DNA of 64,000 nucleotides. Origin: Macrostomum lignano. Lineage: Eukaryota. Shown one piece after another: positions 1 through 61,733 of the stretch (position 1 is its first letter; every line of letters begins with the position of its first letter). The DNA lies in contig NIVC01003738.1 in NCBI GenBank assembly GCA_002269645.1, forward strand, positions 1 through 64,000. Reading direction: 5' to 3'. The notes under the pieces were generated by a model. It saw only the letters and a list, made by a program, of their open reading frames with translations, was not told the origin of the DNA and ran no database searches. The translations under genes were made by a program, and so were the position numbers.

Positions 1-3000
1 AGAGTTGCCAAGGTTTCTAGCATTCAGGAGGATCCTTCTTTACTAACAATGAAATTAAAAATGTCGATCAATTCTTAACATTCAGAATGATGATGAGAAA
101 TGCTTCCTCTGGTGTGTATTAGCTGTTAAACATCCACAAAATAAAGATGGTTATCGAGTGTCAAAATATAAACCATATGAAAAAGAACTTAATCTCACCG
201 ATATCCAATTCCCCATGAGAATAAAAGATATAAAAAAGTTTGAAAGACTAAATGAAGAGTTTGCTGTTAATGTGCTGTATTATGAAGGTAAATTCCCAGA
301 TACACTACAACATCTCTATGTCTCACCTCATAATCAACGAACTTATGTAGTAGATTTACTATACCTGGAGGAAGATGGTAACACTCATTATTGTCTGATA
401 AAAAATCTTACAACATTAGTTTCAAAACAAACTGGAAAGCGTGTAAATCACAAGTCATTTTTATGCAGAACATGCATGACTGTTTACACAAGTGAAAACG
501 TGTTGGCCGAGCACTCAAGGTTGTGCGGTAAAAATGCCCGGTCTTTATAAATTACCTAAGGAAGAATCGAAGCTGAAATTTAAGAATCATATATTCAAAC
601 TAAAGCTACCCATCGCTATCTATGCTGACTTTGAAGCAACAACTGAACCCATTGAAGCACAAAGTAAAAGCTTCACTAAGATTTTAGACAAAGAGTCATA
701 TACTCTAAAAGTAGCAAATCAGAACGCAATAGCTTACGGTTTTTATATCCATTCTGAGTTACCCAAGGTAATTAAATCGAAGTATGAAGGATATTGTGGC
801 ACAGATGCCAAGGAAAAATATGTTGATAGAATGGTTGAAATTTATCAACAAATTAAGAATGGTCTGAAGGAGCCTAAGCATATTAATCATAATTTGACAT
901 CGCAAGAGGAGGCTTCTTTCTGTAAGGCTAAACAATGCTACATATGCGAGGAGTTTGATATGGTTCCAGATATGAAGGTGCATGTGAAGGAAATTGACAG
1001 TAAAGTTACTATAGAATCTTGGTGCAAAAAATGTCTGAACAAGAGCAATAATATAAGTAAATATAAGATCACAAAGCAACAATGGAAAGAGTTTTACAGG
1101 GCTGAAAAATGTGCGAATTGTAAAAATGACTTTACACTTAAGCTAGGTAGTAAGAGAACATTGTCACTATAGTGGCAAATATAGAGGGGCTGCCTGTAAA
1201 TCCTGCAATGCTCTCGAGAGTAAGAAGCGAGTAATCCCAATCTACTTCCAGAATGGATCCCACTATGACTTTCACTTCTTAGTGACACACTTAAAGAGCA
1301 AAGAGACCATGGAGGATAAATTATTTCCTCCACTATCTAAAACTTCTGAAGAGTACATTTCTCTCGAGTTTGGATGTAACAAAGTAGTACTGAGGTTCCT
1401 AGATTCATACAGGTTCTTGGCTTCCTCGCTGGATATCTGCGCAAAGTCCCTGAAGGATGAAGACTTCATCATAACAAAGAAATACTTTAAAAACGACAGC
1501 GATTTTCAATATGTTAAGCGCAAGGGTGTATCCCATATGAGTATATCAGAAGCTTTGGAAGATTAGCAGAAACTGAGTTACCACCATTGAAAGAGTTTTA
1601 CTCGAGGTTGAAAGGTGAAGACATTTCTTCAGATGAATATGATTTTGCAAAACAAATGTGGAAAACTTTTATTGTAAGAATTTGGAGGATTATATGATGC
1701 TGTATCTTAAGGTTGACGTTCTATTATTAGCAGATGTATTCGAACGCTATAGAACATTCTTCCTGAAACACTTTGAGATTGATCCAGCCAGATGCTTCTC
1801 AGCACCAGGATTGAGTTGGAATGCTGGGTTGAAGAAAAGTAAAGTTGAGTTAGACTTGCTGGCGGATATCGATATGATTCATATGATTGATAGTGGAATA
1901 AGAGGTGGATTTAGCGGAGTTCTAGGGTCACGATATGTAAAGGCAAATAATCCTTATCTTCCAGGCTATGATTTAGAAAAACCAACTTCCTACTTACTTT
2001 ACGTTGATTGTACAAATCTCTATGGTTATAGTATGTTGGAACCCCTTCCTTTTTCTGACTTTAAATGGGAAGCTGATTCCAACTATTATAAAAATCCTCC
2101 TGAAGGACGGGGCTGTCTTGTTGAATGTGATCTTGAATATACAAAAGAATCAAAAAAGAAAACGTATGCCTTCCCATTAGCACCTGAAAGTACAACTGTG
2201 TCAGAAAGTGAATTGAGTGAATATCAGAAAGGATGTCTAGAAGTCGAAATGAAAAAGATTGGAAAAGTTCCTAAATTGATCCTTAATTTAAAAAATAAAA
2301 CAAAATATATCGTACATCATAAGCTATTGCGATTCTATGAAGAGATGGGCTTGAAAGTGACAAAAGTACATAGGACGATTTCATTCAATGAAAAGCCATG
2401 GTTAAAGGAGTATATCGAGTTTAATACGATAGAAAGAAAGAAGGCAAAAGAAGCAAAAATTGAGTTCGAAGACAATCAGTTCAAAATGCTTAATGTAAGC
2501 ATCTTTGGCAAGACAATGGAGGATGTTAAAAAGAGAAAGCGATTTGAGTTGCTGACAAGTGAGGATGAGATATCTAAGATAATATCCAAGCCAGATTTCA
2601 TAGACTTCAAAATCTTCAATGAAAATCTAATTTGCATTCACCAGCGACCTAAGAATATCCCTCTTGGAACAAAGCCAACATACGCTGGACAAGCAATTCT
2701 GGATCTCTCGAAATTGCATATGTATGAAACATTTTACAAAGTTTTCAAGTCCAAATGGGGGGATAATGTTGAGATTGTTACCTCTGACACCGACTCATTC
2801 ATTCTTCATATAAAGACAGAAAATATTTATAAAGACATTGCTCAGATGAAGGAGCATTTCGATTTGTCGCTGTATAAAAAATTTTCCGATTGATTTACAT
2901 GATATGATAATTGTGGAAAGCTGGGAACATTCAAGGATGAATTGGCAAAATATGATTGCATAATGACAGAAGTAACCGCTCTAAGATCGAAAGCATATTC

Positions 3001-3280
3001 ATTTAAAACAGTTTATGTCAGCACTCAAAAGGAAGGGAAGGAAGAGAAAAAATTAAAGGGAATCTCAAAGTCAACAGTGAAGCATCATGTACAATATGAT
3101 GACTATAGAAATATACTACTTGATTATAACGAACCAGTCTATAGGAAAGTGTATAGCCTTAGATCAGACAAGCATAACATGACTTTAATAGAACAAAATA
3201 AGAAGGCTATTAGTCCTTTCGATGACAAAAGATACATTGAATCCAATGGAATTATAACACATCCTCATGGATTCAAATAA
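1..3280 (+). CDS. polB: Protein-primed family B DNA polymerase, split by frameshifts (ORFs 158-550, 492-1172, 1282-1566, 1658-2893, 2942-3280); starts upstream of the window
   Basis: N-terminal NIQNDDEKCFLWC, ExoI IYADFE, EndoVII-like HYSGKYRGAACKSCN (~1165-1210), ExoIII YLKVDVLLLADVFE, polymerase motifs YVDCTNLYGYSM, KMLNVSIFGKTME and SDTDS. Confidence 0.95.
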
Positions 3281-3282
3281 GT

Positions 3283-3588
3283 TTAAAAAACCAAACAATT
3301 CAATTGCTTAAGAAGTTTCTTGCGCTGATCATTAAACTCAACATACTTCCTGATCTCTTTTATTTTTTTAACTAACTTGTCGATTTCATCTTCAATAAAT
3401 GCTTCTGCAAAAACAATAGCAGTTTCAAGAAAACATTTGCGATCACTTAATTTATCAATATATCCATAATCCGGTTCTATTATTCCACGATGTGTATGCA
3501 CCACCCTAAAGTTATTTATTTGTATTTCTCTATCAATGCGCTTTATTTCATCTTGGTATGCATTTAGGAGAACTTTTATTGCAGCCAT
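3283..3588 (-). CDS. Hypothetical viral protein, 101 aa
   Basis: Intact ORF convergent with polB, AAAATG start context; no motif recognised. Confidence 0.6.
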   Translation of the reverse strand: MAAIKVLLNAYQDEIKRIDREIQINNFRVVHTHRGIIEPDYGYIDKLSDRKCFLETAIVFAEAFIEDEIDKLVKKIKEIRKYVEFNDQRKKLLKQLNCLVF

Positions 3589-3613
3589 TTTCTAGAAAAA
3601 AAATTATACAATA

Positions 3614-4354
3614 TTAATTGTAGGGAGGTGCACTTGGAGCATTTGATTGAAGATTGAGTGTTGCCGGGTACTCTTTTGGCTTATCAGCTAGACCCAATTT
3701 TTCTCTCAGATCTTTTTCTAGTAATTCCTTTTTAATTTTTTCCTTCGCTGAATGACCAAGTCTACTCTCTTTGAGGATTTTATCAACGACTTCCGAATGG
3801 TTAACTTCTTCAGGCGCAACACAGGCGTCTAACAATTGATCTCTTTTTTCTCTGTATTCTGAATAAATTGCAGCAGCTGCTTGAACCTCTTCAAGAGTTA
3901 ATCTATAATCATCAACTGCTTTTTGGGAGTAAATATACAATCTCTCTCTGTATTGATTTGCCAGATCTCTGAGAAAAATGTATTTTGCCTTCTGCTTTTG
4001 GCAATGAATTTTCACAGTTGCAAACAACGACGTGGATTTTACAGCTTCAAAACCACTCATTGCCCCGATTACTACTCCAATAACTAAGGGATTCAATGTC
4101 AGTATCGATGTTGCTATGCCAATTCCTGTAGCAGCCAAGAGACTTACATTTCCTGTCACAATGTTGATCCAATTTATCCTGCTACTTTGCCGTTTGTACT
4201 TTTTTACCTTTTTGCTATAAATTGTAAGATCTTTAGTAATGCATTCAATACTGCCTTTGATTTCACCCTTTCTCTGATTGAAATAGTCCCGCTCCCTCAA
4301 ATCTGCTTCATGCAGCTCAACCACAGGATAGATGTGTTCATTTTTTTCATTCAT
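3614..4354 (-). CDS. Viral coiled-coil protein with a central hydrophobic (TM-like) segment; probably its own gene starting MNEKNEH
   Basis: ATG at 4354 in the element's TAAAAATG context; hydrophobic stretch VSLLAATGIGIATSILTLNPLVIGVVIGAM. The track ORF 3614-4942 joins it to the upstream gene through a frameshift near 4450. Confidence 0.7.
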   Translation of the reverse strand: MNEKNEHIYPVVELHEADLRERDYFNQRKGEIKGSIECITKDLTIYSKKVKKYKRQSSRINWINIVTGNVSLLAATGIGIATSILTLNPLVIGVVIGAMSGFEAVKSTSLFATVKIHCQKQKAKYIFLRDLANQYRERLYIYSQKAVDDYRLTLEEVQAAAAIYSEYREKRDQLLDACVAPEEVNHSEVVDKILKESRLGHSAKEKIKKELLEKDLREKLGLADKPKEYPATLNLQSNAPSAPPYN

Positions 4355-4373
4355 TTTTATGTGGCGATTATGT

Positions 4374-5760
4374 CTAAAATCGGATAAAGTTGAAAGCCTG
4401 AAACAATAAGAACGTTGATCCTTCAGTGGCTGAATTAATATGCACTCTATAACAGAGAATTTTTCGGTGGAAGCTACTTCAAAATATTTCATGACTCCAG
4501 GAACTAAACCAGCGTTTTCGGTAGAAAAAATATTCCTAAAGTCTCTCTTGTTATTGCTCCCTTTCAGAATAAAACTTTTTGGTTGATTTTTTATAATTTC
4601 ACTACCTACTGCTTTGGTTCCTTTCAATCCGAATTTCCAAATTTGAATAGACTCGGGAAGTTGTACTTCAATGTAAGAATTGGGTTCATTCCTCGATGCC
4701 CATTCTGAATTAGATACTATATAACCCCAATTATCTGACGTTTCAAATGCTCCTGATGACGCTACATTGAAACCCCTTTCTCTATAGTTTTGACGTGTTG
4801 CTAGTGAGGGAATATATCCTGTATAAGATTTGAAACCTAGTCCCCGCCTTAGTCGCAGCTCCACTGATTCAAGTGCATTGTCTACGTATAGCTTTGGTAC
4901 AGCTTGAAGTCTATCTATAGGCCACACTAAATCATTAACCACTGTTTGTCTCTCAAGTAATTCAACTTTTGTAAGCTTTACGGAACCAGAAAAATTAAGA
5001 GAATAATGGAAATAATATGAGGGATTGGGTATTTTTTTCCTAAGATGTGCATTGCCCTTCGTAGTTCAATGGGTGCACTTTGTTCAACAGGTGTCCAGTT
5101 TGTTCCATTTAGGCTCACACTAACAGACCAACCAGGCCACACCTCTCCTTCCAACTTTATCTCTACAACTTTCCTAGCTCTTTTCAAAATTGAAATCGTA
5201 TCCACTTGTCTGAGTCATCTACACTGCTCCAATCTGAAGCTGGGTTTGAATCTGCAACATGATATGCTGCTGAAGAGTTATGAGAAGCGGTCACTTTCAT
5301 GTCAGAATGGGAAGCGTTTGAAGTCAGTAATGAAAGAATATTGACTAATTTCGAACTCTCTGTACCTCCCGCAGTACCTTGCCTTTCTGCTAACAAAGTG
5401 TCAATCTCAGTTTTAGAATACATCTTAGTGTCAATCTCAGTTTTAGAATACATCTTAGTGTCAATCAGTTTTAGAATACATCTTAGTGTCAGTTTCGGTT
5501 TTTGTGTAGACATTGTTTACGCGCCCATGAGCATCGTCAATTAATTGTAGCATGGTGATATTCATTGCGTCACTATCTTCCTTTGAATAAGAGTCTGAAA
5601 CATTTCTCTTTGCTAACAATAAATTATCTATTTCCTCTCTCTTATATCCTTCATTTTCATTGATGTATCGATCATCAGCTAACGCTATTGTTATTCCAGG
5701 TGCTATATCATTTGAATTTGACGAGTAACCAAATTGATTGGCAGTATTCTTGTAACTCAT
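4374..5760 (-). CDS. Fibre/receptor-binding-like protein with YxKxExD repeats and two discoidin (F5/8 type C)-like domains, frameshifted
   Basis: Joining frames 5461-5760, 5184-5513, 4978-5205 and the 5' part of 3614-4942 gives YKREEID/YSKEDSD/YTKTETD/YSKTEID repeats and AVPKLYVD. Two discoidin-like segments: WSS..DKWIRFQF..SVSLNGTNW, and WAS..NSYIEVQLP..PKSFILKGSN..YRVHINS. Confidence 0.6.
5399..5490. repeat. 30-bp coding tandem repeat (~3 copies, DTKMYSKTEI)
   Basis: Unit GTGTCAATCTCAGTTTTAGAATACATCTTA; the third copy lacks 2 bp, which causes the frameshift. Confidence 0.85.
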
Positions 5761-6188
5761 TTTAATTGCTGCAAAATTTCATTATAGCTATCTCCTTTAT
5801 CGATTCGGTGTAAAAAGTACAGCGACATTTGACCACAAAATTTCTTATCAAAAGTTTGAATTTGTTCTTCCATGTCTCCACATATTCTATTCTTTGTGTG
5901 ATTAAACTTTTCCATAATTTCCAGTGTGGGCGGTAGTGCATAGGAATCAAAAAAATAAACCTTATCAGGAGCTGAAAATATAGCTGAATGATGTATACCC
6001 CGTTCTTTCGAAGTGTGAATATTTGTCATAAAGTAACCATACTGTGGTAAATCAACAATTTCATCTCTCATGGCATAGCGAAATGGTTTTAACTTGAGAT
6101 ATTTTGCCCAATTTATCAGATCAATATTAGTCGTAGTGTCAGTCCCAAACTTTTGTTTAAATGCATTCCATGTCTCAGCTTCGCTCAT
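5757..6188 (-). CDS. Adenain-like cysteine (maturation) protease
   Basis: GIHH..YFFDSYALPP..QIQTFDKKFCG matches the adenoviral protease His/Asp/Gln-Cys arrangement; TAAAAATG start at 6188. Confidence 0.88.
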   Translation of the reverse strand: MSEAETWNAFKQKFGTDTTTNIDLINWAKYLKLKPFRYAMRDEIVDLPQYGYFMTNIHTSKERGIHHSAIFSAPDKVYFFDSYALPPTLEIMEKFNHTKNRICGDMEEQIQTFDKKFCGQMSLYFLHRIDKGDSYNEILQQLK

Positions 6189-6197
6189 TTTTAACAC

Positions 6198-6987
6198 TCA
6201 TATTTGTCGTACGTGTAGATTTATAAATATTTCCTCGCCATCAAAGTCGTATAGAACACCAGACTCATCTTCGATGACAAAGTCGAATGTGCTCAACATG
6301 TTTGTAGTTAGTGGTAGGTACACAGGATTTGCAGGCTCTTGAATAATTTTACTTCCCATTGGGACAGAGAACGATGGAATTGAAAGAAGTATTTGCTTAT
6401 CAATTAAATGATTTCCATTAGCTGGATCAGTGATAAACCCCCTTTGATATTTAGACAACGAACCATGATCGCACTTCTAGCTCCGTCTATCCGAGCTGGA
6501 TTTGGAGCTCTCTCAAATGGTTTCAAATACACTTCCGAATTGAATCCCAACAGTCTTCTAAAGTTATTGGAATGTGCATCCCTGAAATCAACTTGATATC
6601 TGTGGCTAACCGTAACTCAACTCTACGCGTGTCTAGGCTTGCACTGAAAACAATAGCCCCCTCTTTCCAATCATTTGCAGCTGTTAGCAATCTTTGAATC
6701 TCGCTTGACAGACTTTTAACTTCCCAAGATCCCGCTTGAATCTTTATTTTTTTCCATGTTCTACCACTATCCCTCGAGTATCGCAACTCATTATTGCCTC
6801 CTTCAATATTGTTAATAGCATCAAAGACTGCAAACTTTTTTATACCAGCTTCGTATTCTCGATCTTCATACAAATTTATCGGAGTGCCTAGAGTTTGTCG
6901 AAATGGGTTTTTAATTGAAAAGAAGTCAAATGTGCGTTGAAACTTTTTACTCAAGAGGATGTTGACTTTTTCTATTTCTTTTTCCAT
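6198..6987 (-). CDS. Minor capsid protein (penton), two 1-bp deletions
   Basis: Restoring the frame near 6597 and 6460 gives VELRLATD-QVDFRD..RRLLGFN..SKYQRGFI..EPANPVYLPL..IEDESGVLYDFDGEEIFINLHVRQI, typical of Polinton pentons. Confidence 0.8.
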
Positions 6988-6989
6988 TT

Positions 6990-7721
6990 TTAAGCAAGTA
7001 ATTCTGCTAGCTCTTTATCAACATTGTTATGTCCCTCTGCTTTTGCGGCTAGTAATGTCAACACTCTTTCACTGAGTCCAGATCCCGGTTTTACTCGATA
7101 TCCTGGTGGATTATCTTTCAATATCCTTACTGCTTGCTTATAATTCCCACTTGATTTGGCCGCTGGATTTTTACAATGTTCAATGAGGTTAACATAATCC
7201 TGCAATGTTTGCATCTTGAATTGCTTCAGCTCTTCACCATTTTCAGTTACTTTAGGCATTTTGAACAACTCTTCAAGATCTTCAGAAAATGGCATTCGGA
7301 ATTCGTTGACAATGATGTCTCGACCTTGTTCATGGAATTCAACATCTATTACAGATGATCCAAATATATATCCAGCATCAGTTTTTTGAATCCGTATACT
7401 AGGCGCTGGTCTTTGAGTTATTGGAATCTTTCCAATTTCTTCAATTATTTTGTCAAATACTTCCAGGGGTTCAAATCGGCCTTTTGGTGTACTTGATTGC
7501 GGAACTGGAACTTTTTGATTCTGAAGTTTATCAACAAGGTTGGCATTGACATCAATAAATTCATCGAGCTTTTCTGTGACAGGTTTTTGAGCTAATGGAG
7601 CCACTCTTGCATATAAACTCTCTTCTCCAATTTTCAAATAGCGTTGAGCATCATTTCTGGATTTGTACGTTTCTCGCTGCTTTGCTAAATTAATGAGTTC
7701 TCTTATATATTCATTAGTCAT
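6990..7721 (-). CDS. Conserved Polinton/adintovirus-type virion protein of unknown function (C-terminal LLAAKAEGHNNVDKELAELL helix)
   Basis: Intact 243-aa ORF between penton and ATPase; the C-terminus resembles the LL.s..aGn...Ei..il.eL motif of Polinton accessory proteins. Confidence 0.6.
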   Translation of the reverse strand: MTNEYIRELINLAKQRETYKSRNDAQRYLKIGEESLYARVAPLAQKPVTEKLDEFIDVNANLVDKLQNQKVPVPQSSTPKGRFEPLEVFDKIIEEIGKIPITQRPAPSIRIQKTDAGYIFGSSVIDVEFHEQGRDIIVNEFRMPFSEDLEELFKMPKVTENGEELKQFKMQTLQDYVNLIEHCKNPAAKSSGNYKQAVRILKDNPPGYRVKPGSGLSERVLTLLAAKAEGHNNVDKELAELLA

Positions 7722-7723
7722 TT

Positions 7724-8497
7724 TTACAATGGGATTTTAGTTAGAACATCCTTATACAAATCTTGCTCATCCTCATCAGCTCTTGTATTTATATAGATAT
7801 AGCCATACTTCTTTTTCCAAGCCTCTCTACATTTAGCCTTGAATATAGCGGGTTCATAATTCGTTTCTATATTTCTAGCAATGTGATTTAAGTTTGTATC
7901 TTTTTGTTTAAAGATTATGTAACATGTCGTATTCTCCCTGACAGTATTGCGATCTAGTTTGGTAAAATTTTGAGCTAGATAAAAACCACAACAGTTTCCA
8001 TGCCTGCCTCTCTGAAACAGACTTTCCTGAAATGTTTGATTAGCCTCTCCCAAAACATCATCCAATATCACACATGTCTTTAGTCCATTATGAAAAATTT
8101 CTTCATTTGGAGTATGGGAAAGAGTGACAGGAATTTTCTCTATTACTTCTGAATTTTCTGATGTGCTTTGCACTCGACCAGGGTTGGCTGCCTCTCGACA
8201 AATATGTCTAATATCTTCAGGAGATGCATCCTCACTCACCTGGTAGACATGATAGAGTGAGTTGATAAGAGAAGGTGGGAGACCATTTTCAAAGCCATAT
8301 TTTAGAAACTGATACTCTGGATCCATTTGAGATGCTCTGGGAACATATAAAACTAACTCATTAAAGTCAACTAGTTTTTCAGGACTTGTAAGAATATGGA
8401 ATAGTAAATATGTTTTACCCGTATTTGTAGCGCCGATAATACAACATAAAAGAGGATTAGGGAAAATAGGATCATGCTGAAATTTTACTTTGGGCAT
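7724..8497 (-). CDS. Genome-packaging ATPase (A32/FtsK-like)
   Basis: Walker A GATNTGKT, Walker B CVILDD, RGRH..YLAQ..VRENTT motif. Confidence 0.92.
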   Translation of the reverse strand: MPKVKFQHDPIFPNPLLCCIIGATNTGKTYLLFHILTSPEKLVDFNELVLYVPRASQMDPEYQFLKYGFENGLPPSLINSLYHVYQVSEDASPEDIRHICREAANPGRVQSTSENSEVIEKIPVTLSHTPNEEIFHNGLKTCVILDDVLGEANQTFQESLFQRGRHGNCCGFYLAQNFTKLDRNTVRENTTCYIIFKQKDTNLNHIARNIETNYEPAIFKAKCREAWKKKYGYIYINTRADEDEQDLYKDVLTKIPL

Positions 8498-8518
8498 TTA
8501 AAAAAAGAAAAAATGACC

Positions 8519-9882
8519 TTATTCGACGCGGGTCATTTGATATTCACTGGTAACTTTTATTACATTCTTTGTTTGTTCAAGAATTAGTGCAAAAGCAGTC
8601 AGCTCAACATTTGTTGACTTCTTGATAAATAATTGAATATTCACTCCACTCTTGACCAGAAACTCATCTTGAGCTGTTAGATCAAAGCAAAAGATTGGAT
8701 AGATGGTTAGAAAGTCTTGTTTATTGAATGGAGGAGTTACACCGAAACGGCTGCAGATGTCTTCGTACATTTCATACGCTCTGTGAATGTCTTGAGCTAC
8801 TGGATCAATTTCAACATAATCATTCGGATACATCACCTGATTTAATCTGACTTGAAGCTGGGTTATTTTCACTGCATTTGCTCCAGTTTTGTAAGACACA
8901 TACTTGTGATCATTAACTATATATGATGGGTTGTTTACGTCATATTTGAAAGCTACAAAGATTGCAAGTGGCATATTGGAGATGTTGGCTATGTTCCATG
9001 TATATGGACTTCCTTGAATGAGTTGTGGCGGAACCGTTACCCTCTCTGGAAATGATACTGTAATGTCCTTGTTGAGTGATTTTAGAAAAGCTGCTTCAGC
9101 ACTGGGTGACAAAGTAATAGCAGGGATCCAAATCTCAAAGCTATTAATAGTTAACTTAGCTTCCGTCCCGGCAGCTCCAAAGAAAATTTCAGCATCGTTA
9201 GTCTTTCTTGTCCATGTGAATTTATATTTAATTCCTTTGCTAATCTTCTGCCAATCAAGGAACCCAATGAGAGGTGTTAATGATAGTTTGATTGTTCCAC
9301 CTCTGTTTGGAGCATTAGTGACATTGTTATAATTTTCAAGCCTCCTAATGTATCCAGTATTCGAATCCTTCTTATTGAGTCTATTTTTCATAGCGATTGC
9401 TGCAGTTCTCACAGCTTCAGCATCTGCGTTGTTTGCTAGAGTATATCAGAAACAGTCCCAGCATCTCCAGTGTCTGGAATCCATCCGTATGCTTCTCCAA
9501 CTTCATTCATTAATTTTGAGTACATTACGGACTTTAAGATTGTGTCATACTCTCCAGGATCATTATAGACTTTCTTTGTTCCTCCAATGTCAACTATGAG
9601 TTGAGAGAAAAGTCTCATAGGCCAATTATGTTCTAGAGTAATGTTCGTATTCAAGTCGGTGTTATCTCGTTGTGTTATTGAGTATTTTATACAACCGAAT
9701 GCCTCTGACATGAGAATGTATGACTCTGTTGAATTGACTTCATGAACTATTTGACCTCCTGCAACATTGAGATTATTAGTGCTACCTGTTGTTGGAGAAA
9801 TCTTAATATAGTCTTCTTTCTTTTTGAAAAAGCTAAAAGTTTTGTCCTCATATATGCTCAGTATATCCTTTTTGTTCTCCAT
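8519..9882 (-). CDS. Major capsid protein (double jelly-roll), one 1-bp deletion near 9440
   Basis: ORFs 9436-9882 and 8519-9412 join as DI-T-LANNADAEAVRTAA (~450 aa). Capsid-like motifs LEHNWPMRLFSQ, FDLTAQ, PLAIFVAF; typical size and position. Confidence 0.85.
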
Positions 9883-9902
9883 TTTTATAAGAGAAATTTC
9901 AA

Positions 9903-10354
9903 CTAAGCTTCATGAGGTCTAAGAATTATCCCATTACCCTGTTTCTCCTTTTCAACTTTAAACGTCTTTAGCAGCCACTTGACTGCTTCGCTGGGTACTT
10001 GTTCGACTCTTTTAGCCGCATCAACTAATACTCCACTCCCTTGAGCCTTTTTCAACTCTTCTAGTTTTTGCCGTTCAATGCTTTCTATTGTCTTATTATT
10101 TTAGCATTGTTGGCTGTATTAACACTTTTTGCAATCATTGTACCAACTCCTGAGGCTGCTCCGATACCACCCAAAATTGCTGGTAGTAAGCCTAATAGAG
10201 GAATTATTCCACCTTCATGTTCTTTCTGTTTCTCTTGCAATTCTCGAATCTTCTCTTTAGAAAGATATTGCTTTTGCTTATTTACAGTAACATATCTTGG
10301 TTTTCCCTCTCGAACATATCGATTGAGTCTTGCTTCAGTGTTTTTCTCGCTCAT
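9903..10354 (-). CDS. pX/Mu-like basic core protein, one 1-bp deletion near 10095
   Basis: GGIIPLLGLLPAILGGIGAASGV resembles adenovirus pX (GGFLPxLIPxIAAAIGA). The shifted frame continues IERQKLEELKKAQGSGVL..QGNGIILRPHEA to a stop at 9903. Confidence 0.65.
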
Positions 10355-10362
10355 TTTTAAGG

Positions 10363-10785
10363 TCAGAATTTCTTCAAACCATTGCCTTGTCTCAAAGACA
10401 CTTGAGACTGTTCTGCTGTTCCTAGAGCCTTTTTAACAATATCTTGAATAGCCTTATTTGATTGAGAAGCTATCTGTTGCTCTTCTTCCATTCTTTTCTT
10501 TGCTTCTTTATCTCTACGTTTCTTTTTAATATATTCCAGTTCCTCACCTGCTTTAGACATGTCACTGTATGATTTCTTCGCATCGAATATGTTCTTCGCT
10601 GTGGTAGCTGTTTTACCTATTGCATCAGCTCCACTCACAATTTTACTTCCATGATTTGATAAAAAGTTTGTGACACCACTGATCATATCACCAATTCCTT
10701 CACCCTCTTTATCAGCTAGTAGTTGTGAATCAGACGTTTCAATCTGACCTTTCGCCCGTTTGCAGTTTGTTCGATAGGCGCTCAT
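10363..10785 (-). CDS. Putative virion core/membrane-active protein (MSAYRT..)
   Basis: TAAAAATG start at 10785; EGEG-IGDMISGVTNFL amphipathic segment and a Lys/Glu-rich coiled tail. Confidence 0.6.
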   Translation of the reverse strand: MSAYRTNCKRAKGQIETSDSQLLADKEGEGIGDMISGVTNFLSNHGSKIVSGADAIGKTATTAKNIFDAKKSYSDMSKAGEELEYIKKKRRDKEAKKRMEEEQQIASQSNKAIQDIVKKALGTAEQSQVSLRQGNGLKKF

Positions 10786-12096
10786 TTTTAGTTGAAAAAT
10801 TTGCTGGTAGAAGCTGGGATTTGTAAAATGATCCAATGATTTCTTCTCCATTCTCATCCTCAATAATGTAGGTTATGGGATTGGAGTAAACTATTTTCTT
10901 TATCCTAAACACTTCTGAAATTTTCCAATATCCTCTTCGACCCTTTTCAAAGTGCTCCTTATATCTATAGATATGAACTTTGTCACCTACTTTGAAGTTT
11001 GGTTTCTCATTTGAATACTCGAAAGTTGGCTTTGGTACTCGCTCAGGATGTTTAGATGCTTCTGAAGGAGTTATCAGAATCTCAGAATGGATTGTGTTGT
11101 TGTATTTTTCAACAATAGCTGGCAATGTGTGGAGCCATTTCTGATTACCCTGTAGATCAAATTCAAACCAGAGTTTATTTGTGAGAGTACGATTGAACCT
11201 CTCAATCATTGCATTCTTGGACTCGCCATAAATTGAAAACATCTTGTTAATATATTCACCCCTTTCATCCTTCTTTCTAATGTTGTCTTTTGAAAACGAG
11301 TATAGCTTGTACATATGCTGATTATAAAACTCCTTGCCTTCATCTACACAAAGTCTCTCTGATCGTCTTCCTGATTCCTTAAATACTTTTTGGAAAGCTT
11401 CTGCAACTTCCGCTCCCGTCTTTGTTTTCAAAGGAACTGCCCAGGCGTAACGTGTAAAACCATCTATGATAGTAGAGCATATTTGTAACCTCTTTCGGGC
11501 GGTAGGATAATGATATCTGCATGCCAAATTGTGTCTTTTGCATAGTGAATCATTTTTCTAAATACTCTTGGCTTTCTGTATTCCCTATGCAATTTTACTG
11601 CATCTTCATAGCTAAGACCCTTACCATAAATTGTTAGACAGTCTATACAATTGTTGGGGTTGTGAGTATGAATTCCTAATCCAAACCGAACTTTAGCATT
11701 GATAATACGCTTTACTAGATTTCTAATGAGTCTCTCCTTTACCGACAAGTCGCTGGTTGGAATAGCATCTAAATCAGCTATCATTTTTTCATCAGCAATA
11801 TGCTTCTTTGCTAGGGCTTCCTCTGGAGTTGAAGACGTCTTTTCAGCATCTCTATAGCTTTTGTCATGATAGTAAGCAGTCCAATCAATTGGATTAATTG
11901 GTAGACTATCATACCGAGGCCAGTCTGTAATTGGATTGAGTCTCTTGTCTAAATTTGTACCTGGGCCAGTGAAAGAATACCCTGGAATATGAAATTCGCC
12001 AGGATATTTTCCAGTGGCGAAGATGGGTGGTAGTTTTGTTATAGCTGACTGAATATCCAATGCAGAACCTAGAAATAATGGTTTACTGAAGGCCAT
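10739..12096 (-). CDS. int: Parvovirus-type phospholipase A2 domain fused to a retroviral-like (rve) integrase; one 1-bp deletion near 11472
   Basis: PGYSFTGPG..PINPIDWTAYYHDKSY (VP1u-type PLA2) runs in frame into LHREYRK..WHADII. Restored continuation ALTIIDGFTRYAWAVP..LCVDEGKEF..IERFNRTL supplies the D-D-E triad. Confidence 0.9.
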
Positions 12097-12337
12097 TTTT
12101 ATAAAAATAAATTTAAGTAATCTACAGACTTAGGCTGCGTTAACTGCTGTAGCAATAGAGCCTGCTGCTCCACCTGCCTGTTCTATGAAAGGTAGATTTG
12201 TCTTTTACTAAGTTGGATATGGTGCTTATAGTATCAAAAAAGACCTTCTCCATTATACTCTAGTGGTTCGCCTATTGTATAGTCTCTTATCTTGCATGAT
12301 TCTGTAACGTGGTGCGCTTCGTGTCTTTTTAGAAAGG

Positions 12338-12872
12338 GGGGTGAACACAATAGACTAGCATGAGACGCTCCTATTGGTTGCCAAAACCAAAACTTTTTTG
12401 ACAGAAATTTTGGTCGCAAGATTTGGCAGAAATTTTGGCAGAAATTTTGGCAGCCAATAGCAATGTTCAGTGCTGCGGTTATGTATAGTTAGTTTGGTGA
12501 GTTCCTGCGAGAGCCTATTTGACCATACGCTTCACTCAGTGTGGGTTTCGCACGACGTTAAAGCTGAGTCACAATATAAAAATTGCTTTGAGGAGAATTT
12601 CTCCTGCTATTTGTTCCATTTTTAAGATACATAATTTAGAAAAGGGTTAGTGAAATCGTCCGTAGGTAGGGTCGCGAGCATTGTTCGTTTGTAACTTGCG
12701 TGGCCCACTTCATGTCTTTTTTTACAGCTAGATAGAGGGTGAACACAAAAGATTTGCACGAGCCACTCCTATTGGATGCCAAAACCAAACACTTTTTGGC
12801 AGAAATTTTGGCAAAAATTTTGATTTTGGCAGAAATTTTGGCAGCCAATAGAAATGTTGAGTGCTGCGGTTA
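12338..12872. repeat. Two ~140-bp direct repeats (12338-12480, 12735-12872), each an imperfect hairpin bounded by inverted CCAAT boxes
   Basis: CTATTGG(T/A)TGCCAAAA at 12371 and 12769 pairs with TTTTGGCAGCCAATAG at 12445 and 12836; internal GGCAGAAATTTT repeats. Confidence 0.8.
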
Positions 12873-13388
12873 GTGCTCTAGTAGTCGAGTATGCATGCCA
12901 CGAAAAATTTAAATTAGCGCTCCATGTTCTTGAATGTCTTCTATTATCTTTAAGTACAAATCTAGAACAGCATTAAAGCCATTTCAAAGCCTCGGGACAA
13001 AGCGAATGTGCAGGAGCAAATTATTGACTTTTGTAAAAGCATTGTATGCCTCGAGTGGACAATTTTTATGCATAGATGGTAGCTGACTGATCGTTAAAAG
13101 CAAAGCTAGTAAGATTGGCTTATTGAAGGGCGTTATGCAATGGGAGAAAAGACTATTATTAAATTTGATGCTAGTTTTGAAATGATGAAACCTGAAAATA
13201 GGTTATTTTAACCCACGAATCAAAAATTTCTTGTGGTTTTACTCACGAAATCGCGCAAAAAGCAATTTTTCAAAACTTTTGAAAAATCACTAAAATCACT
13301 GTTTTCAGACAATTTTCACCTGTTTTTAGTCGATTTTTATCTGTTTTTTGTGATTTTTCAAAATGGGTTGCGCTCAAACCTACTTTTC

Positions 13389-13847
13389 CTATACTACTGC
13401 GGTGGTATCCTTAATTGGGATTGTGTACTCTATGTAATGTTCTGTAAACTTCCTCTGTGCAAAATTAATCTCTTCAATGGCAAGCTCCGACTCTTTTAAA
13501 TGGATTAATTGCTCTAATTTCTCTTGTTCCTGCTTATTTTGTGGGTACTTTGCTTTTTCACCAGTGAGAGTTTCGTATTTGTTAACTAAGTTGCGACTCC
13601 TCTCTTGGTGTTCCTTTGCAGGATTTTGTATAGGCGCATACTGGTTGGATTCTAATTGATTGATGATTTCCAACTGTTTTTCATAGCTTCCCAGGTGACC
13701 AGGGTCGGTGTAAAACTTTTGTTTACATGCTTCTCTTAGTAACTTACTTTTGTCTTGAAATGAGACGCCTTGTAAGGTTGTAGGGTAGGGTAAATGAGAC
13801 GAAAGATATTTGTTGACTAAATCTCTTGCTGGATTGGCTTTTGGCAT
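13389..13847 (-). CDS. Orphan virus-like ORF, 152 aa
   Basis: Intron-less, AT-rich, AAAAATG start like the other viral genes; ATG lies 15 bp from the host junction. Confidence 0.55.
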   Translation of the reverse strand: MPKANPARDLVNKYLSSHLPYPTTLQGVSFQDKSKLLREACKQKFYTDPGHLGSYEKQLEIINQLESNQYAPIQNPAKEHQERSRNLVNKYETLTGEKAKYPQNKQEQEKLEQLIHLKESELAIEEINFAQRKFTEHYIEYTIPIKDTTAVV

Positions 13848-14342
13848 TTTTCTCGAAAATATAATTCCGAATTACTTGCATTTGTGTTTCAGAGTTGATG
13901 CCTATGTACGGTATACCGGTGCAGTATGTAATCACAGCTAGAACACCCTAAATTATGTATTCTTAATTTGTTAAGATCTGCCGTGTCTAACCGGAAGTAG
14001 CTTCTTTTTGCAGATAAAATACTGGGCAAACAGGCTCTTCTGTGTTGTTTATCGGGTTGCATGACAGCCACTGTCCAAGTGCAGAGTTCCTACAGTTTAG
14101 TGGTAAGAAACTGGAAGCACGGACAAAACTTGCATGGAAACCACACAGAAAGATCGAATAGAGTGACTGCTACTGCAGTTCTGGATTGCGATCTGAGATA
14201 TGATGGGCTGAAGTTCTGCAACTGCCGAACTTTATATTTATGACCGTTGAATATAAAATTAACTTACCAAAGACTTCCAGTTTAAACATAAAAAAATAAG
14301 CAAGAAACAAAAAGGTGATCATACTATTCTATTTGAAAAAAA

Positions 14343-17300
14343 ATGAAAATTACGCTTTGGCAGCTGCTGCATCTACTGCTGAGCATGCGAGTTGCTGCAT
14401 CTTTGGACTGCTCCGATGTTGATCGCACTGGTGAGTCAGCTGCTTTTAGGAGCAGTTAAAAGGCTGGCAAAGCAAAGCTGCAAATAATTTGCAATAAATT
14501 TTCCAGTCACAGTGCAGCTGAGCAGGGCTGACGTTCTGCGCACCTGGCAACCCAGCGGTGCGCACTGCCGTTGGTGGGAGAGTCGGCAGTCAGAGACAAA
14601 CCGATTCCCTGCTGCTGTGCGGTCCAGGCCTCCGTGGCTTGTGATGCAGCTGAGGCAGCCGATGATGCTGCAGGCGGTGAGCGTACGAGACTGGGGTAAG
14701 TGACGCTGAATGACTCATTCTCATGATGCATGATGAGGAAGACGGAGTCTGGGACACAAATTGTGAGACCAGCTAGCATCTAATTAGAACTCTGAGACAG
14801 TGTGAGACCAGCTAGCATCTAATTAGCACTCTGAGACAGTGTGAGACCAGCTAGCATCTAATTAGCACTCTGAGACAGTGTGAGACCAGCTAGCATCTAA
14901 TTAGCACTCTGAGACAGTGTGAGACCAGCTAGCATCTAATTAGCACTCTGAGACAGTGTGAGACCAACTAGCATCTAATTACCACTCTGAGACAGTGTCA
15001 GACCAGCTAGCATCTAATTAGCACTCTGAGACAGTGTGAGACCAGCTAGCATCTAATTAGCACTCTGAGACAGTGTGAGACCAGCTGGCAGCCAAGCACT
15101 CGTGTTGCAGATGGCCAGTGGCACGCAGCAGCTCCGGTCGGCTCGCCCGTGTCAGCGGTCGGAGCCTCGAGCCTCCCGCTGGAGCTGCAGCTGGAGGATC
15201 CGTGCCGCGCCAGCTGGGAGGCCTTGAACGGTATCGACCGCTGGCGAAGTCTTGATGGCTCCAGCGGCACCGCCATGGTGAGTGAAAGAGGCAGCTGTTT
15301 GCATGCTGCACATTTTGCACATTCTGAAGAACTCAGACATTCTGAGCACTCCTTCCAGCTGCCAGTGGCCTTCCTTCTGTTCAGCAGCTCCCAGCAGCTC
15401 CAGTGGAGCGCTCTCAATCTGCAAGGTGAGGTCTTTCAGCTCAGTGCTTTGATTTGCAGGTCACTGAGTTCATTTCACCTCCGCACCCTCAGGCCGCACG
15501 GCCCCAATGCAGCTGAAGGAGACCAGAAACCCATTTTGCCTGAACTGCGAGCCCCTCACCTGGAGACCCGGAGATCGCATTGGCTTCTCAGTGAGCAGCT
15601 GCGGCTCCCAGACTCTGGGCTGCTCAGTTCGACTCGCGAATGGCAGCAGGCGAGAGGCTGAGTTGGTGAGCGACTGGCCGGTCTTGACTGACTGATTTTC
15701 CACTTTGAGGCTGAGATCTCAGGGCATTCTGTGATTTTCAGTTCAAGATCTCAAGACCGGGCAGTGATCGGATTCGAGTCACCCATTTTGAGTACTTTGT
15801 GGAGGAGACGGAAATCCCGCGGACTCTGACCTGCTGGCAGGGGAACCCAGCGGCTCTGCAGATTGAGAGGGAAATCGCTGCGACATGCAAGTCTAGAGAT
15901 TTGCGGGTGCAGCGGTCATTCAGGGCTCTGTACAGTTGTACACCTATAGATCCATTTGTATGCACTTTTAATTGTAGCTGATAAGGGAAGCTTCACTCTA
16001 TCGGTCTCTCTGATGTGGGTCTCGGGCAGGAAGGTTCTCTTAGAAGCCGAAGCGCAGCGATTCTTTCCAGAGCCCAGGATTCAGTGTTCGATCAGGGCGG
16101 TGACGGAGCAGCCTTTGAAAGTTGAGAGTCAGGTGAGGACAGGTGCACTGTCTTTGAGTGAGCGACACCGCTGACAGCACGAGTTGGTCTACAATCTGAC
16201 CACCACGCCACAACCCCAAGTTCCCAGTCACCGCGCCACCGCGTCACCGCGGCCTATCCTTACACGAAGCACACGTAAAATGCAGGTACCCCTCATTCGA
16301 TGTCGTTTAACTTTCAGAACCGGTCTGTAGTGAAGGACAATAAAAGCAGGGTTCTGCTGTCAGTTCGCTCAAGGTTCAGCTTTCACGCATCGCTCTCAAT
16401 GCACGGAGGCCAAATTCTGTGCTGGGTGAATTTGACTGGCAGCAAAAATCATGTCACGAGTACTGTGAAAAAAAAATTAAATATAACGCAGATAAGTGGT
16501 GAGAAATATGCAAAATTTGATTTCTATATTTATTCGATATGAGCCACCCCTCACCCAGCCACCCCTCACCCAGTCACCCCTCACCCAGCCACCCCTCACC
16601 CAGCCACCCCTCACCTAGTCACCCCTCACCCAGCCACCCCTCACCCAGCCACCCCTCACCCAGCCACCCCTCACCCAGCCACCCCTCACCCAGCCACCCC
16701 TCACCCAGACACCCCTCACCCAGCCACCCCTCACCCAGTCACCCCTCACCCAGCCACCCCTCACCCAGCCACCCCTCACCCAGCCACCCCTCACCCAGAC
16801 ACCCCTCACCCAGCCACCCCTCACCCAGTCACCCCTCACCCAGCCACCCCTCACCCAGCCACCCCTCACCCAGCCACCCCTCACCCAGCCACCCCTCACC
16901 CAGCCACCCCTCACACAGCCACCCCTCACCCAGCCACCCCTCACCCAGCCACCCCTCACCCAGCCACCCCTCACCCAGACACCCCTCACCCAGCCACCCC
17001 TCACCCAGCCACCCCTCACACAGCCACCCCTCACCCAGCCACCCCTCACCCAGCCACCCCTCACCCAGCCACCCCTCACCCAGACACCCCTCACCCAGCC
17101 ACCCCTCACCCAGCCACCCCTCACCCAGACACCCCTCACCCAGCCACCCCTCACCCAGCCACCCCTCACCCAGCCACCCCTCACCCAGCCACCCCTCACC
17201 CAGCCACCCCTCACCCAGCCACCCCTCACCCAGCCACCCCTCACACAGCCACCCCTCACCCAGCCACCCCTCACCCAGCCACCCCTCACCCAGCCACCCC

Positions 17301-20300
17301 TCACCCAGACACCCCTCACCCAGCCACCCCTCACCCAGCCACCCCTCACACAGCCACCCCTCACCCAGCCACCCCTCACCCAGCCACCCCTCACCCAGCC
17401 ACCCCTCACCCAGACACCCCTCACCCAGCCGCCCCTCACCCAGCCACCCCTCACCCAGTCACCCCTCACCCAGCCACCCCTCACCCAGCCACCCCTCACC
17501 CAGCCACCCCTCACCCAGCCACCCCTCACCCAGCCACCCCTCACCCAGCCACCCCTCACCCAGCCACTCACTCGCACTGCAGAGCCGTGCCAGACGGCCG
17601 TAGACCTGGGCTCGAGTCCGTACTGGGAGGTGGACCAAACCCGCCAGATCGCAGTGACCTCCAGCGCCTGCAGCATCTGGAACGTGAGCCACAGCTGCCG
17701 GCTGCTGCAGGCTGATGGCGCTTCACCCGTGCCGCTCCGCAGAGTTGAAGTACGCTTGCACTGAGATTGGCCAAAGTGCTCAGAGAAGTGCAGAGCCTCA
17801 CCTGCCCCAATCTGCACCCTCATTCGCATTGCAGCAGAGCAGCTTCAGCAGCGCTCACCTGCTGCAGGTGAGCAGGTCGATGGCTCACCAGAACTGGTCC
17901 GTTCGCTGCAGCGTCAACCAGTCAGGTGTTGTGTATGATGAGGCTGAGAGTCTGGAGCAGCTGCGACCGCTGATTTTCTGTGAGTGCCGAACAGTGCATG
18001 AAGCCAGTCAACTGTGAACGCTTTGCTTGAATGCGATTTCCAATTTCACTGCAGACCCGGCAAGCATTCAGGTAAATGGCAGCATTGAGAGCTCGCGACT
18101 GCACCTGGCTGTGGCTGCCTCCGACGCTCGGCCTCCGGTGTCATCCGTTGTCTGCCAGATCGCGAATTCTTCTGTGAGTGCTTAATGCGAGCCAGAGATT
18201 TGTCTCATTAATACAGGCTAGAAGCGTGCAATTTCTAATAAAGTTTCATATATTTTTTCTCTAAGTGTCACGAACTTTAAACTTTACATCTTTTCACAAA
18301 ACTAAAATGGTGCGATGAAAACTTAGTTATTAAAAAATGATTCAAGCGAAGAACCACAGGCTAAAGAGATCTGAGACCGGGTTCCGATGGGTCAGCGGGA
18401 GCTGATGGTCTGGCACTGGCACAAACTCATCGTTGTTGCGCATCTTCAATGTAGATTTGGTGTGCAAGACTAGAGAACCCAGGTGACTGACTAGCGCTTT
18501 TCTTACCTTTCGTGACTTTCCTAGCCTGATTGTAGCCAAGATGCGGCCTCCCACATCCAGCCAGAACTGCATTGACTTAATGGCAGAGCTGTAGTATACA
18601 TGTGAACCTGTGTGTATCATTATTCTAACGCTGCTGCATCCCAATATTGGTCCGGCAAAGAGTGCAGGAATGAAAACCCCATCGCATCTGCGTCCTAGCC
18701 AGCCCCTGTAGGATAATGAGGAGAAATAGGGATCCTAAACTCGATGTCAACTTGAGCACCGGAATGGAAGCAAATGCTCAACTGTGGACCAAACTGACTC
18801 ATTGAAAACAAGTTCGTAAAAATCAGGTTAAATCAAAATTAAAAGTCAACTCTTTCACTGTCCTCATTCACAGAGAGCTGAACTGACGCGGATGCAAAAC
18901 AGCCACACCTGGAAGGAACACGGCAGCATTACACCACCAGCATGTGCATCGCTGAATAACGAATCGACTTTTCTCATCAACTTCACTGCTCAGCAGGACT
19001 TCAATGGCTCGACGATTTTTCAAACAAGCGAACAGGTCTTTCGTAACTGCCCCCCAAAGGAAACAGGTAACTCATTTTTACCGACACATAACAGCCAATC
19101 GCAAATAAAATGTCGTTAAAATAGTAAAACAGCAAAATATTATGTATTTACCTTTGTCAATTCAAAGCTCTAGACTTTCCAAAGCTGTAAAATTAAAGTA
19201 CGATTTCCGACCGAAGAGTAACCTAAATTTCGCTATAAACTGGTATTGAACACAAAATATTAGTAAACTGCAGCATTTAAAGAAATTGTCCCTGCATTCA
19301 ACACAGCGTCTCAATAGCTGGATGCACTTCCAGAGGCCCTCCGTCAGGTCACGTTGTTCTTTATGTCTTCCAGGTCTTCAAATCGGGATCCCTAGAGAGC
19401 TATGGGGGACCTGCCAGAAATCGCAGGGGGCATGTCTGGTGAATAAGGTGATGGCTCAGCTCAAGCTGATGCGTTGTCGTGATGCAGCGATTGGGCATTG
19501 TTGCTCCCGCCGCATCCTCGGCATGAGCCTCTTCTTAAAGTTCTGATTTACAGCTTGTCCCTGTGGCACAAACTCGTGATTGATGAGGCCCCGCGAATAC
19601 ATTTCTCGCTAGCGCTGGGAACCTGGCTAAAGCTCTCTATTTTACTTTTGTTTCAGATGAAGATGGAAGTTTCACTCTATCGGTGTCTCCGGTGTGGATC
19701 CCGAGCAGGAAAGTTGAGTCAACGGGTACGAGGCTTGAGCCAGACTCACTTTGCTTAAATTTTAATTGAGAACATCAGAGGTCATAACAGGAAACTTACC
19801 AGCAGGTTCAATTAACTTTGCAGATCCATTCTCAACCGTGTACGCCTTTCCACTGTCGCACCTGCTCCTTGCATCCGGTTCGGTGATAGCCGTAATTGTG
19901 ATGGTGGGCATCGCCTCATCTGTGATTACCTGGGTAATTACGAGCTAAAACCTTTTTTCTGGATAGCTTTTGTCAGTCAGTCAGTCAGTCAGTCAGTCAG
20001 TCAATCAGTCAGTCAGTCAGTCAGTCAGTCAGTCAGTCAGTCAGTCAGTCAGTCAGTCAGTCAGTCAGTCAGTCAGTCAGTCAGTCAGTCAGTCAGTCAG
20101 TCAGTCAGTCAGTCAGTCAGTCAGTCAGTCAGTCAGTCAGTCAGTCAGTCAGTCAGTCAGTCAGTCAGTCAGTAGTCAGCTGTTTACCTTGCAGAGAGTT
20201 TCCCGGTCCCGATTAGCCGCAGTGGCTGCTCAGCGCAGAGGCGGTGGCGCACTTCGGATGCAGCCGCTGGCAGCCGTGGCCTCCGCGGGCGCCGGCAGCA

Positions 20301-20470
20301 GCGCGTACGACTACCCGTCCACGAATGCGACAGCTCAGGGTAGCAGGAGCCACAGCGAGGCCGGAGAGTCCAACAACATACCCAGTGTCTACCTGGTGCT
20401 GAGTCCGTCGAGGAGGTCTCAGCAGCAGCAGCAGCTGGTCAGCAGTTTTGAGCCGAGGCAGCAGAGCTAA
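14343..20470 (+). CDS. R1: multi-exon type I transmembrane receptor-like gene (~750 aa), apparently intact
   Basis: Exons 14343-14430 (signal peptide), 14507-14695, 15111-15277, 15359-15425, 15493-15665, 15742-15886, 15978-16132, 16318-16498, 17583-17749, 17835-17979, 18055-18173, 18874-19066, [19374-?], 19657-19725, 19824-19933 (TM), 20195-20470. Without the bracketed exon, all phases match and the total is 2244 nt (747 aa + stop). Confidence 0.8.
14764..15086. repeat. 39-bp intronic tandem repeat, ~8 copies
   Basis: Unit GAGACAGTGTGAGACCAGCTAGCATCTAATTAGCACTCT. Confidence 0.95.
16541..17567. repeat. 15-bp intronic minisatellite, ~68 copies
   Basis: Unit CAGCCACCCCTCACC. Confidence 0.97.
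19972..20179. repeat. (AGTC)n microsatellite in the last intron of R1
   Basis: Near-perfect tetranucleotide run. Confidence 0.97.
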
Positions 20471-20592
20471 GAAATGGCTGAAAGCAGAGAATAATTTGAT
20501 TTTTTCTACGACCTACTTTGAAATCGTTTCCAACTAAAAAATTACAATCTAAAACCTTTACTTGGGTAACTTTATTGGTCGATGGGTTATCA

Positions 20593-20900
20593 GGGGTTTA
20601 GCTTAGTGGTTAGGGCGTCGGTCTGACTACTGGAAGGTCGGGGGTTCGATTCTAGATCCTACGGACCCATCTGTGTCCTTGAGCAAGACACTTAACTCTG
20701 CATTCCTTCAGTTCACCCAGCTGTAAAATGGGTGCCAGCATTAGCTGGGGTAATTGAGGCTGTGTTTGGCGACCCCCCAGTCCCTGGACTGAACAGCCGT
20801 AAGCAGCCTTCAGATGCGCCGCGCAATAGCTGAACTGTCGGTTGCACATCTGGCCGTTAGAGCAAGTGTAATCAATTATTATTTACTAATATTATTATAA
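20593..20900 (+). mobile_element. tRNA-derived SINE with a CORE-like domain
   Basis: A box TAGCTTAGTGG, B box GGTTCGATTC, GTGTCCTTGAGCAAGACACTTAAC..CTGTAAAATGGG (MIR/CORE-like), AT-rich tail. Confidence 0.75.
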
Positions 20901-29000: not shown

Positions 29001-29051
29001 TCGGCGAGAGAGCGGCGGCCACCTGACTTGTACATGGCGGGCTTTGCTTGA
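26034..29051 (+). pseudogene. Gypsy polyprotein remnant: SAP domain, partial RT, RNase H, integrase; two frameshifts
   Basis: SAP LNVRQLKAELRNRGLPTTGRKQQLAKRL; RT KTAF..FGMCNAPATFQR..YIDD; RNase H CDSSQFAVGAVL; integrase H-H-C-C, QIDIKGP, HSDQG, VERGNRT. Confidence 0.92.
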
Positions 29052-34116: not shown

Positions 34117-34287
34117 TGAGACAGTGTGAGACCAGCTAGCATCTAATTAGCACTCTGAGACAGTGTGAGACCAGCTAGCATCTAATTAGCACTCTGAGAC
34201 AGTGTGAGACCAGCTAGCATCTAATTAGCACTCTGAGACAGTGTGAGACCAGCTAGCATCTAATTGGCACTCTGAGACAGTGTGAGA
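34117..34287. repeat. 39-bp repeat in R2, ~4 copies
   Basis: Same unit as 14764. Confidence 0.9.
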
Positions 34288-61730: not shown

Positions 61731-61733
61731 TAC

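Follow-up and report, generated by a model that had tools for sequence, protein, structure and literature searches.

Many relatives of a viral gene found in Macrostomum lignano are predicted to link a parvovirus-type phospholipase A2 (PLA2) to an integrase by −1 ribosomal frameshifting right after a conserved motif, KxKxGxG, and this predicted link is what is new here. Elsewhere the two domains share one reading frame, and this PLA2–integrase fusion, judged from its homologues, is real, widespread and conserved. The gene was analysed in the window, by which is meant the whole stretch of DNA studied (contig NIVC01003738.1, positions 1–64,000 of the forward strand, 64,000 nt), and it was followed into sister copies in the same genome and into foreign loci. 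The preliminary description of this DNA had conjectured a packaged PLA2–integrase polyprotein cut by a viral protease; this idea is plausible and partly supported, and the support is indirect, coming from the end of the PLA2 unit at KxKxGxG in every arrangement and from the −1 frameshift predicted there in relatives.

The PLA2–integrase gene in the window

The features of the gene and its neighbours are collected in Table 1. A single open reading frame (ORF) holds, as had been described, the calcium loop YSFTGPG, the HD..Y signature, the FGLG-I and YGKG-L stretches and the integrase start, up to D194, and it runs without a stop between the PLA2 and integrase domains. The assignment of the N-terminal domain to the parvovirus-type PLA2s is likewise confirmed by its PF08398 match. 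Between the domains TAAAAATG is absent, but an in-frame, A-rich ATG (M105, 11784) is present downstream of the PLA2 active site, and a product without that active site could be made from it. The preliminary description had also taken 10739–12096 as one frame. This does not apply to the window copy, since the frame shifts at ~11,470, just past D194, a break that had been missed; because of it the 210-aa ORF ends early, and the other two catalytic residues lie in another frame. The window copy of the gene is broken. Several other genes of this copy are also split, by decay or by read errors. At the domain boundary itself, the window's lineage has neither a heptamer nor a frame change, the gene being in frame there in the window, L002 and L032.

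Table 1. Features of the PLA2–integrase gene and of the surrounding element in the window
Feature	Position	Strand	Remarks
ORF: PLA2, linker and N-terminal part of integrase, 210 aa	11464..12096	-	
Parvovirus-type PLA2 domain, residues 34–110	11767..11997	-	PF08398 36.1 bits (cut-off 23.9)
Calcium-binding loop YSFTGPG, residues 40–46	11959..11979	-	
Catalytic H77-D78 and Y81 (H77-D78-x-x-Y81)	11854..11868	-	
D102	11791-11793	-	
Domain boundary KVRFGLG (K135, G139)	11674..11694	-	Candidate protease site or helix cap
IYGKG	11617..11631	-	Fits adenovirus protease consensus; close relatives only
Integrase start LHREYRKP...WHAD	11473..11610	-	First catalytic Asp (D194) at 11515-11517
Frameshift of the window copy, approximate place	11465..11479	-	
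Remaining integrase, in another frame	10739..11470	-	Includes the C-terminal beta domain; second Asp at about 11344 and Glu at about 11203
GGNCC word at the Gly-Pro codons	11963..11967	.	Empty intron insertion site between 11965 and 11964
Protein-primed family B polymerase, several pieces	215..3280	+	By motifs
Candidate adenain-like cysteine protease	5757..6188	-	Order of H, D, Q and C judged by eye
A32-like packaging ATPase	7724..8497	-	PF04665 26.1 bits (cut-off 22.8)
Double jelly-roll major capsid gene, split in the window copy	8519..9882	-	PF21738 52 bits on 8519-9391
Split ORF with GG-IIPLL stretch, separate from PLA2	9890..10354	-	
Candidate virion-core protein: small, basic, with GxG motifs	10363..10785	-	

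Conservation of the fusion

The fusion is kept in frame by sister copies and a second subfamily as well as by numerous foreign homologues, which answers the earlier call for a check of its conservation. A genome search was carried out in which 150 of 808 candidate matches were scored. Among the 30 best genomic matches, eight (L002–L008 and L010) carry the gene as one 452-aa ORF; in 16, the reading frame stays open all the way between the PLA2 active site and the integrase C-terminus. Two of the 30 (L015 and L018) have a stop immediately before the boundary motif. Neither ground for refutation named in the preliminary description applies, as the N-terminal domain matches the PLA2 profile and other copies retain the in-frame fusion. 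In the second subfamily (~56% identity), the junction is open in all six loci fetched. An unbroken single contig crosses the PLA2–integrase junction in three of four sequencing runs that were guessed to be RNA and may be DNA. Beyond this genome, 408 homologues were found, and PF08398 and PF00665 are both present in 78 of the 120 listed, at 32–76% identity, a count favoured by a listing that ranks fused proteins higher.

Alignment of 74 fusions leaves G44, H77, Y81, D102, K135, G139, D194, D252 and E299 invariant, and the integrase of the sister copy L002 matches PF00665 at 39.5 bits (cut-off 32.6). By their sequences, the catalytic residues of both predicted enzymes are shown to be intact in sister copies. 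A natural sister copy modelled with AlphaFold (mean pLDDT 83.8) shows two well-predicted domains on either side of a low-confidence linker (140–154), with a helical domain to about residue 139 before it and, after it, an integrase core followed by a C-terminal beta domain. The integrases of foamy virus and other retroviruses match the model best.

A search of viral sequences with PLA2 returned 20 loci, two of them repeats (L210 = L108, L211 = L102), and no further fused locus was found among those read (6 of the 18 non-repeat loci). A related PLA2 domain also occurs on small viral contigs (~3 kb, L213–L226), with no integrase in the four loci read.

The boundary motif

KxKxGxG closes the PLA2 part alike in fused, frameshifted and separate PLA2X genes. 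The separate PLA2X genes on viral contigs consist of PLA2, KxKxGxG, a basic spacer and a protein-X-like stretch, and the stand-alone PLA2 of L212 ends three residues past the motif. Whatever the arrangement, then, the PLA2 unit finishes at KxKxGxG. Its sequence context fits a candidate cleavage site; given the placement of K135 and G139 at the end of a helix in the sister-copy model, it may also be a helix cap only. From the motif to the integrase start, the linker measures ~3 to ~60 residues.

The adenovirus protease cleaves at (M/I/L)xGx-G or (M/I/L)xGG-x. KxKxGxG misses this consensus, its P4 residue being K/R and not M/I/L, and the site that does match it, IYGKG, is confined to close relatives. 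Counts of GxG motifs across the ORFs of the element are sparse. In two viral contigs, PLA2X and protease share one stop-to-stop frame (L101:340-1371, L104:471-1535); similar cases bear the label ‘PLA2X-Adenain’ in part of the supplement of PMC11071296.

Predicted −1 frameshifting in relatives

The arrangement of PLA2 was classified in 113 foreign integrase loci. The two domains form one ORF in 13, PLA2 lies directly upstream, though not in one ORF with the integrase, in 21 and elsewhere in 11; no PLA2 match was obtained in 67 (26 of them with <1 kb of upstream sequence) and no integrase match in 1. Relative to PLA2, the integrase start of the 21 adjacent but non-fused loci is shifted by −1 in 15 and by +1 in 3 (including L102, which was mis-anchored and is in frame by eye); 2 are in frame, and 1 was unparsed. 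An in-register X_XXY_YYZ heptamer followed by an open frame to the integrase is found in 11 of the 15 −1 loci, at most 8 codons from KxKxGxG and mostly as A_AAA_AAC. No such in-register heptamer occurs in the eight in-frame loci that could be parsed (5 were unparsed), and the background amounts to 30 of 2325 windows (1.3%). In frameshift-type loci, the PLA2 frame terminates 3–15 codons past KxKxGxG. A check of 16 loci for an internal start, 5 of which are broken before the first catalytic Asp, found no Met ahead of that residue in 9 of the 11 whose frame reaches it.

Loci in the −1 state group together on a tree of the integrases, with 8 changes against a mean of 12.3 after shuffling and none of 500 shuffles as low. 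Two supported groups are entirely −1, and 10 of the 11 loci with a separate PLA2X fall in one supported clade, on a quick tree of 140 columns with many open forks from which short cores and loci with <1 kb upstream are excluded. Identical integrase cores are carried by L140 and L186. Among 10 frameshift loci, computation of pseudoknot-free folds gave a stable 3′ structure in only 4 (z −2.7 to −5.5).

Retroviral Gag-Pol is made by −1 frameshifting, and the predicted −1 junction points to a comparable packaging of the integrase, here by way of a virion-core lipase. No description of a PLA2–integrase frameshift was found in the literature searched (Repbase and subscription journals lay outside its scope).

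Proposed mechanism and alternative readings

The reading considered probable is that the gene is that of an endogenous Polinton (adintovirus), in which fusion loads the integrase into the virion on a core-packaged lipase and a protease frees it. PLA2 would be a virion-core protein, as proposed for PLA2X, on which the integrase is carried into the particle. Frameshifting members would produce much free PLA2 and little PLA2–integrase, in the manner of Gag and Gag-Pol, and the in-frame form of the window's lineage would give PLA2 and integrase at 1:1. The viral protease would separate the two at or after KxKxGxG; the freed PLA2 may then attack the endosomal membrane and aid escape, for which parvoviruses offer a precedent, and the delivered integrase, being on hand before viral gene expression, would go on to integrate. 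Packaging, cleavage, endosomal membrane attack and integration by the delivered integrase are all steps that we infer from the genes. Counting against the packaging reading are the departure of KxKxGxG from consensus, a protease without Pfam match, the decay of some −1 loci, the small share of frameshift loci with a stable 3′ fold and the ATG at M105. A wider proposal, put forward tentatively as somewhat short of an even chance, is that of a Polinton lineage with an independent Gag-Pol strategy, in which the integrase would exist only as a lipase extension (−1 or in frame), the protease would be specific for KxKxGxG and homing introns would reside in the calcium loop.

The fusion might instead stay uncleaved, the PLA2 fold serving as the N-terminal domain of the integrase and both acting jointly in passage through a membrane or the nuclear envelope. 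This is unlikely, although K135 and G139 do sit at a helix end in the model, the shortest homologues have few residues between motif and integrase start, and the adenovirus protease consensus is unmatched at the motif; the variable length and low model confidence of the linker speak against it, as do the free PLA2 that frameshift-type loci would yield, ending a few codons past the motif (3–15), and the presence of KxKxGxG in separate PLA2X genes. A rather poorer case can be made for regarding the −1 junctions as sequencing errors or A-run decay, with the in-frame fusion alone being real. Loss of a base in an A-run would mimic a −1 shift, the junctions are A-rich, 3 of the 21 loci scored +1 and several contain further breaks. 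Errors or decay of this kind sit badly with 15 loci at −1 against 3 at +1 (one of the latter, L102, mis-anchored), with heptamers in register, with eight parsed in-frame loci that have no junction run of at least six A and with 12 runs of at least six A that leave the integrase stretches around them unbroken in these same loci; moreover, 16 of the 21 integrase cores are unbroken and the −1 state clusters on the tree.

Least probable of all is a mere expression shortcut in a compact genome, by which the integrase would use the promoter and start codon of PLA2 with no role in packaging. PLA2 is separate in 11 of the 113 loci and many integrases have no PLA2 nearby, so that other lineages can do without the link. 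Such a shortcut is at odds with the retention of both active sites down to ~32% identity and a frameshift signal that implies a set ratio of two products.

Group I introns in the calcium loop

Homing group I introns appear, from their sequences, to target the calcium-loop codons in sister copies. Many genomic matches began at residue 45; in these copies the Gly and Pro codons of the loop are parted by an insertion. A set of 96 loci, selected mainly because of this feature, was fetched: the insertion is present in 69 and absent in 21; 2 are rearranged, and exon 1 was not found in 4. Of 40 scored DNA matches in the window's subfamily, 25 continue across the insertion site, and 26 intron 3′ junctions fit a pattern.

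Type A introns (23 loci, mostly 864–894 nt, terminal G in 22 of 23) reach 91 bits on RF00028 and encode an Eco47II-like nuclease (PF09553 30.1 bits, cut-off 25.9) of at least 200 aa in 13 of the 23. Type B1 introns (38 loci, 299–337 nt) contain no ORF and are adjoined by an HNH/endonuclease-VII-like or Eco47II-like gene. They end in A in 31 of 38 cases; the ND5-717 intron also ends in A, and a terminal A is compatible with in vivo splicing according to a passage of PMC6545197. An internal Eco47II-like call for type B1 was rejected as an artefact, caused by a type A ORF that extends into the core of the ribozyme. Type B2 introns (eight loci: L033:2263-2596, also L036, L052–L056 and L095) combine the outer domains of type B1 with another catalytic core, a pattern suggestive of recombination. 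For the 3′ end of type B2 there are two readings, with the frame lost or with the frame kept and a shorter calcium loop. Above its cut-off of 50, RF00028 was matched by L023, L024 and L026 (88.9–91 bits) and by L060 (61.2 bits), and it was not detected in L031, L033, L034, L036 or L097. Over 28 distinct cores, 97.5% of cells are paired in a structure set by hand from these same sequences (slid controls 39–51%); 32 of 67 pairs are changed on both sides, and the P7 G-C pair is invariant.

One joined contig, of depth 3.3, was obtained in one of the four runs guessed to be RNA; its exon 2 begins with two differences. No genomic match was found for its exon-1 end followed by a non-T base, and its exon-2 start occurs in none of the 26 intron 3′ junctions.

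The window copy is intron-free: neither Rfam on positions 1–15000 nor an intron model of our own on the whole window gave a match, and three nuclease queries detected no nuclease remnant in the window. In positions 1–13400, the word GGNCC occurs twice against 13.3 expected. It ranks lowest among the 16 words of this kind, and the insertion site accounts for one of its two occurrences. In sister copies L031, L033 and L036, the gene slot before PLA2 is filled by an HNH/endonuclease-VII-like or Eco47II-like nuclease, swapped between copies, and the HNH-like gene is also present in the intron-less copies L032 and L035. A group I-like intron was observed at the same Gly-Pro boundary on a viral contig of 34% identity from another metagenome (L097:3280-3581), which has a GIY-YIG gene upstream of it and no GGNCC in 10.7 kb (6.1 expected); on the 94 foreign loci, our intron model had no match apart from this one.

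The element and its surroundings

The endogenous Polinton spans the window from position 1 to ~14,000 and is AT-rich (~36% GC). Its PolB gene overlaps the start of the contig, which begins inside the polymerase, so that one end of the element is missing. Hallmarks of Polintons and adintoviruses are present in the form of a D-D-E rve integrase (sister copy), a double jelly-roll capsid and an A32 ATPase. Scanning of the polymerase pieces and of the candidate protease ORF gave no Pfam match; from their motifs, we take the former to be a protein-primed family B PolB and the latter, presumably, a cysteine protease. The GG-IIPLL stretch listed in Table 1 resembles adenovirus protein X precursors.

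The non-coding stretch 12190-13150 before the PLA2 gene includes two imperfect copies of ~170 bp with inverted repeats inside each of them; in the sister copies L012 and L013, this place is taken by a different sequence. Near the element end lies an ORF of 152 aa (13389-13847, minus strand) with no Pfam match. A multi-kilobase host repeat is present in three diverged copies with internal tandem arrays (14300-21000, 33900-37700 and 56000-63000). The flank also contains retrotransposon and transposase ORFs (26034-29051, 38144-41835, 43144-45079 and 48927-50594), one of them between long inverted repeats, which we take to be Gypsy-, BEL- and piggyBac-like.

Relation to known systems

The fusion is already annotated and is hence not new as an annotation. 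In supplementary file 2 of PMC11071296 (bioRxiv 2024.03.25.586562), two proteins, Adinto15303 and Adinto6405, bear the label ‘PLA2-Integrase’, and an automatic JGI domain name (P0090) records the fusion as well. Like the present gene, the labelled stretches of these two proteins combine a parvovirus-type PLA2, KxKxGxG and an rve integrase in one frame. As far as the consulted parts of that work go, the fusion exists as protein-file labels, the main text never uses the term ‘PLA2’ (0 occurrences), and frameshift or slippery sites are proposed for Penton and Hexon-Adenain, not for PLA2-integrase. Its Adinto13074 entry is split, at the protein level, into a PLA2X ending just past the motif and an integrase starting from an internal Met. 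Passages of the coral (PMC11131425) and nematode Polinton papers hold no description of the fusion, and no main-text description was found in the literature searched, with Repbase and subscription journals outside its scope.

PLA2 genes in Polintons are known, as seen in passages of PMC3671162, PMC5803895, PMC8502044, PMC11296320 and bioRxiv 2026.06.19.733378. In the parts consulted, alpha adintovirus PLA2X (PMC8502044) and Sf Maverick CAP (PMC5803895) have a parvovirus-like PLA2 with the same boundary motif and are proposed to be membrane-active virion proteins. PLA2X, as presented there, stands as a gene of its own whose C-terminal part resembles protein X, whereas the window gene has integrase in that position and the X-like ORF is separate. 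With the PLA2 of parvovirus VP1u (PF08398), the gene shares the calcium loop and the H-D-Y-D residues, sequence matches to VP1 chains being weak (E at least 0.44); the parvovirus PLA2 is fused to a capsid protein, the window PLA2 to an integrase. The likeness to Gag-Pol lies in an integrase carried as C-terminal extension of a presumed virion protein and, in relatives, in A_AAA_AAC-type heptamers. The differences are that this is a DNA virus, that the carrier is a lipase and not Gag, that the window's lineage is in frame and that the carriage of the integrase is here a prediction from gene sequences.

According to part of a 2013 review (PMC3679873), the known nuclear group I introns were all in rDNA. 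Group I introns in integrated genes of protist Polinton-like viruses appear in passages of PMC12220804; these and the sister-copy introns are both RF00028 members in integrated viral genes. Compared with what those passages describe, the present introns differ in their setting, an animal nuclear provirus and the calcium loop of PLA2, and in being accompanied by a nuclease, either an internal Eco47II-like one or one encoded by an adjacent gene. No report of group I introns in animal Polintons was found in the same literature, again with Repbase and subscription journals outside its scope.

Significance

How a Polinton integrase reaches the incoming genome, and whether infectious particles exist, are the questions addressed by a PLA2–integrase polyprotein. 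A PLA2–integrase with a predicted frameshift switch would provide a testable answer and a DNA-virus parallel to retroviral Gag-Pol. For annotation of the family, integrases of such elements that have been called from an internal Met may be miscalled.
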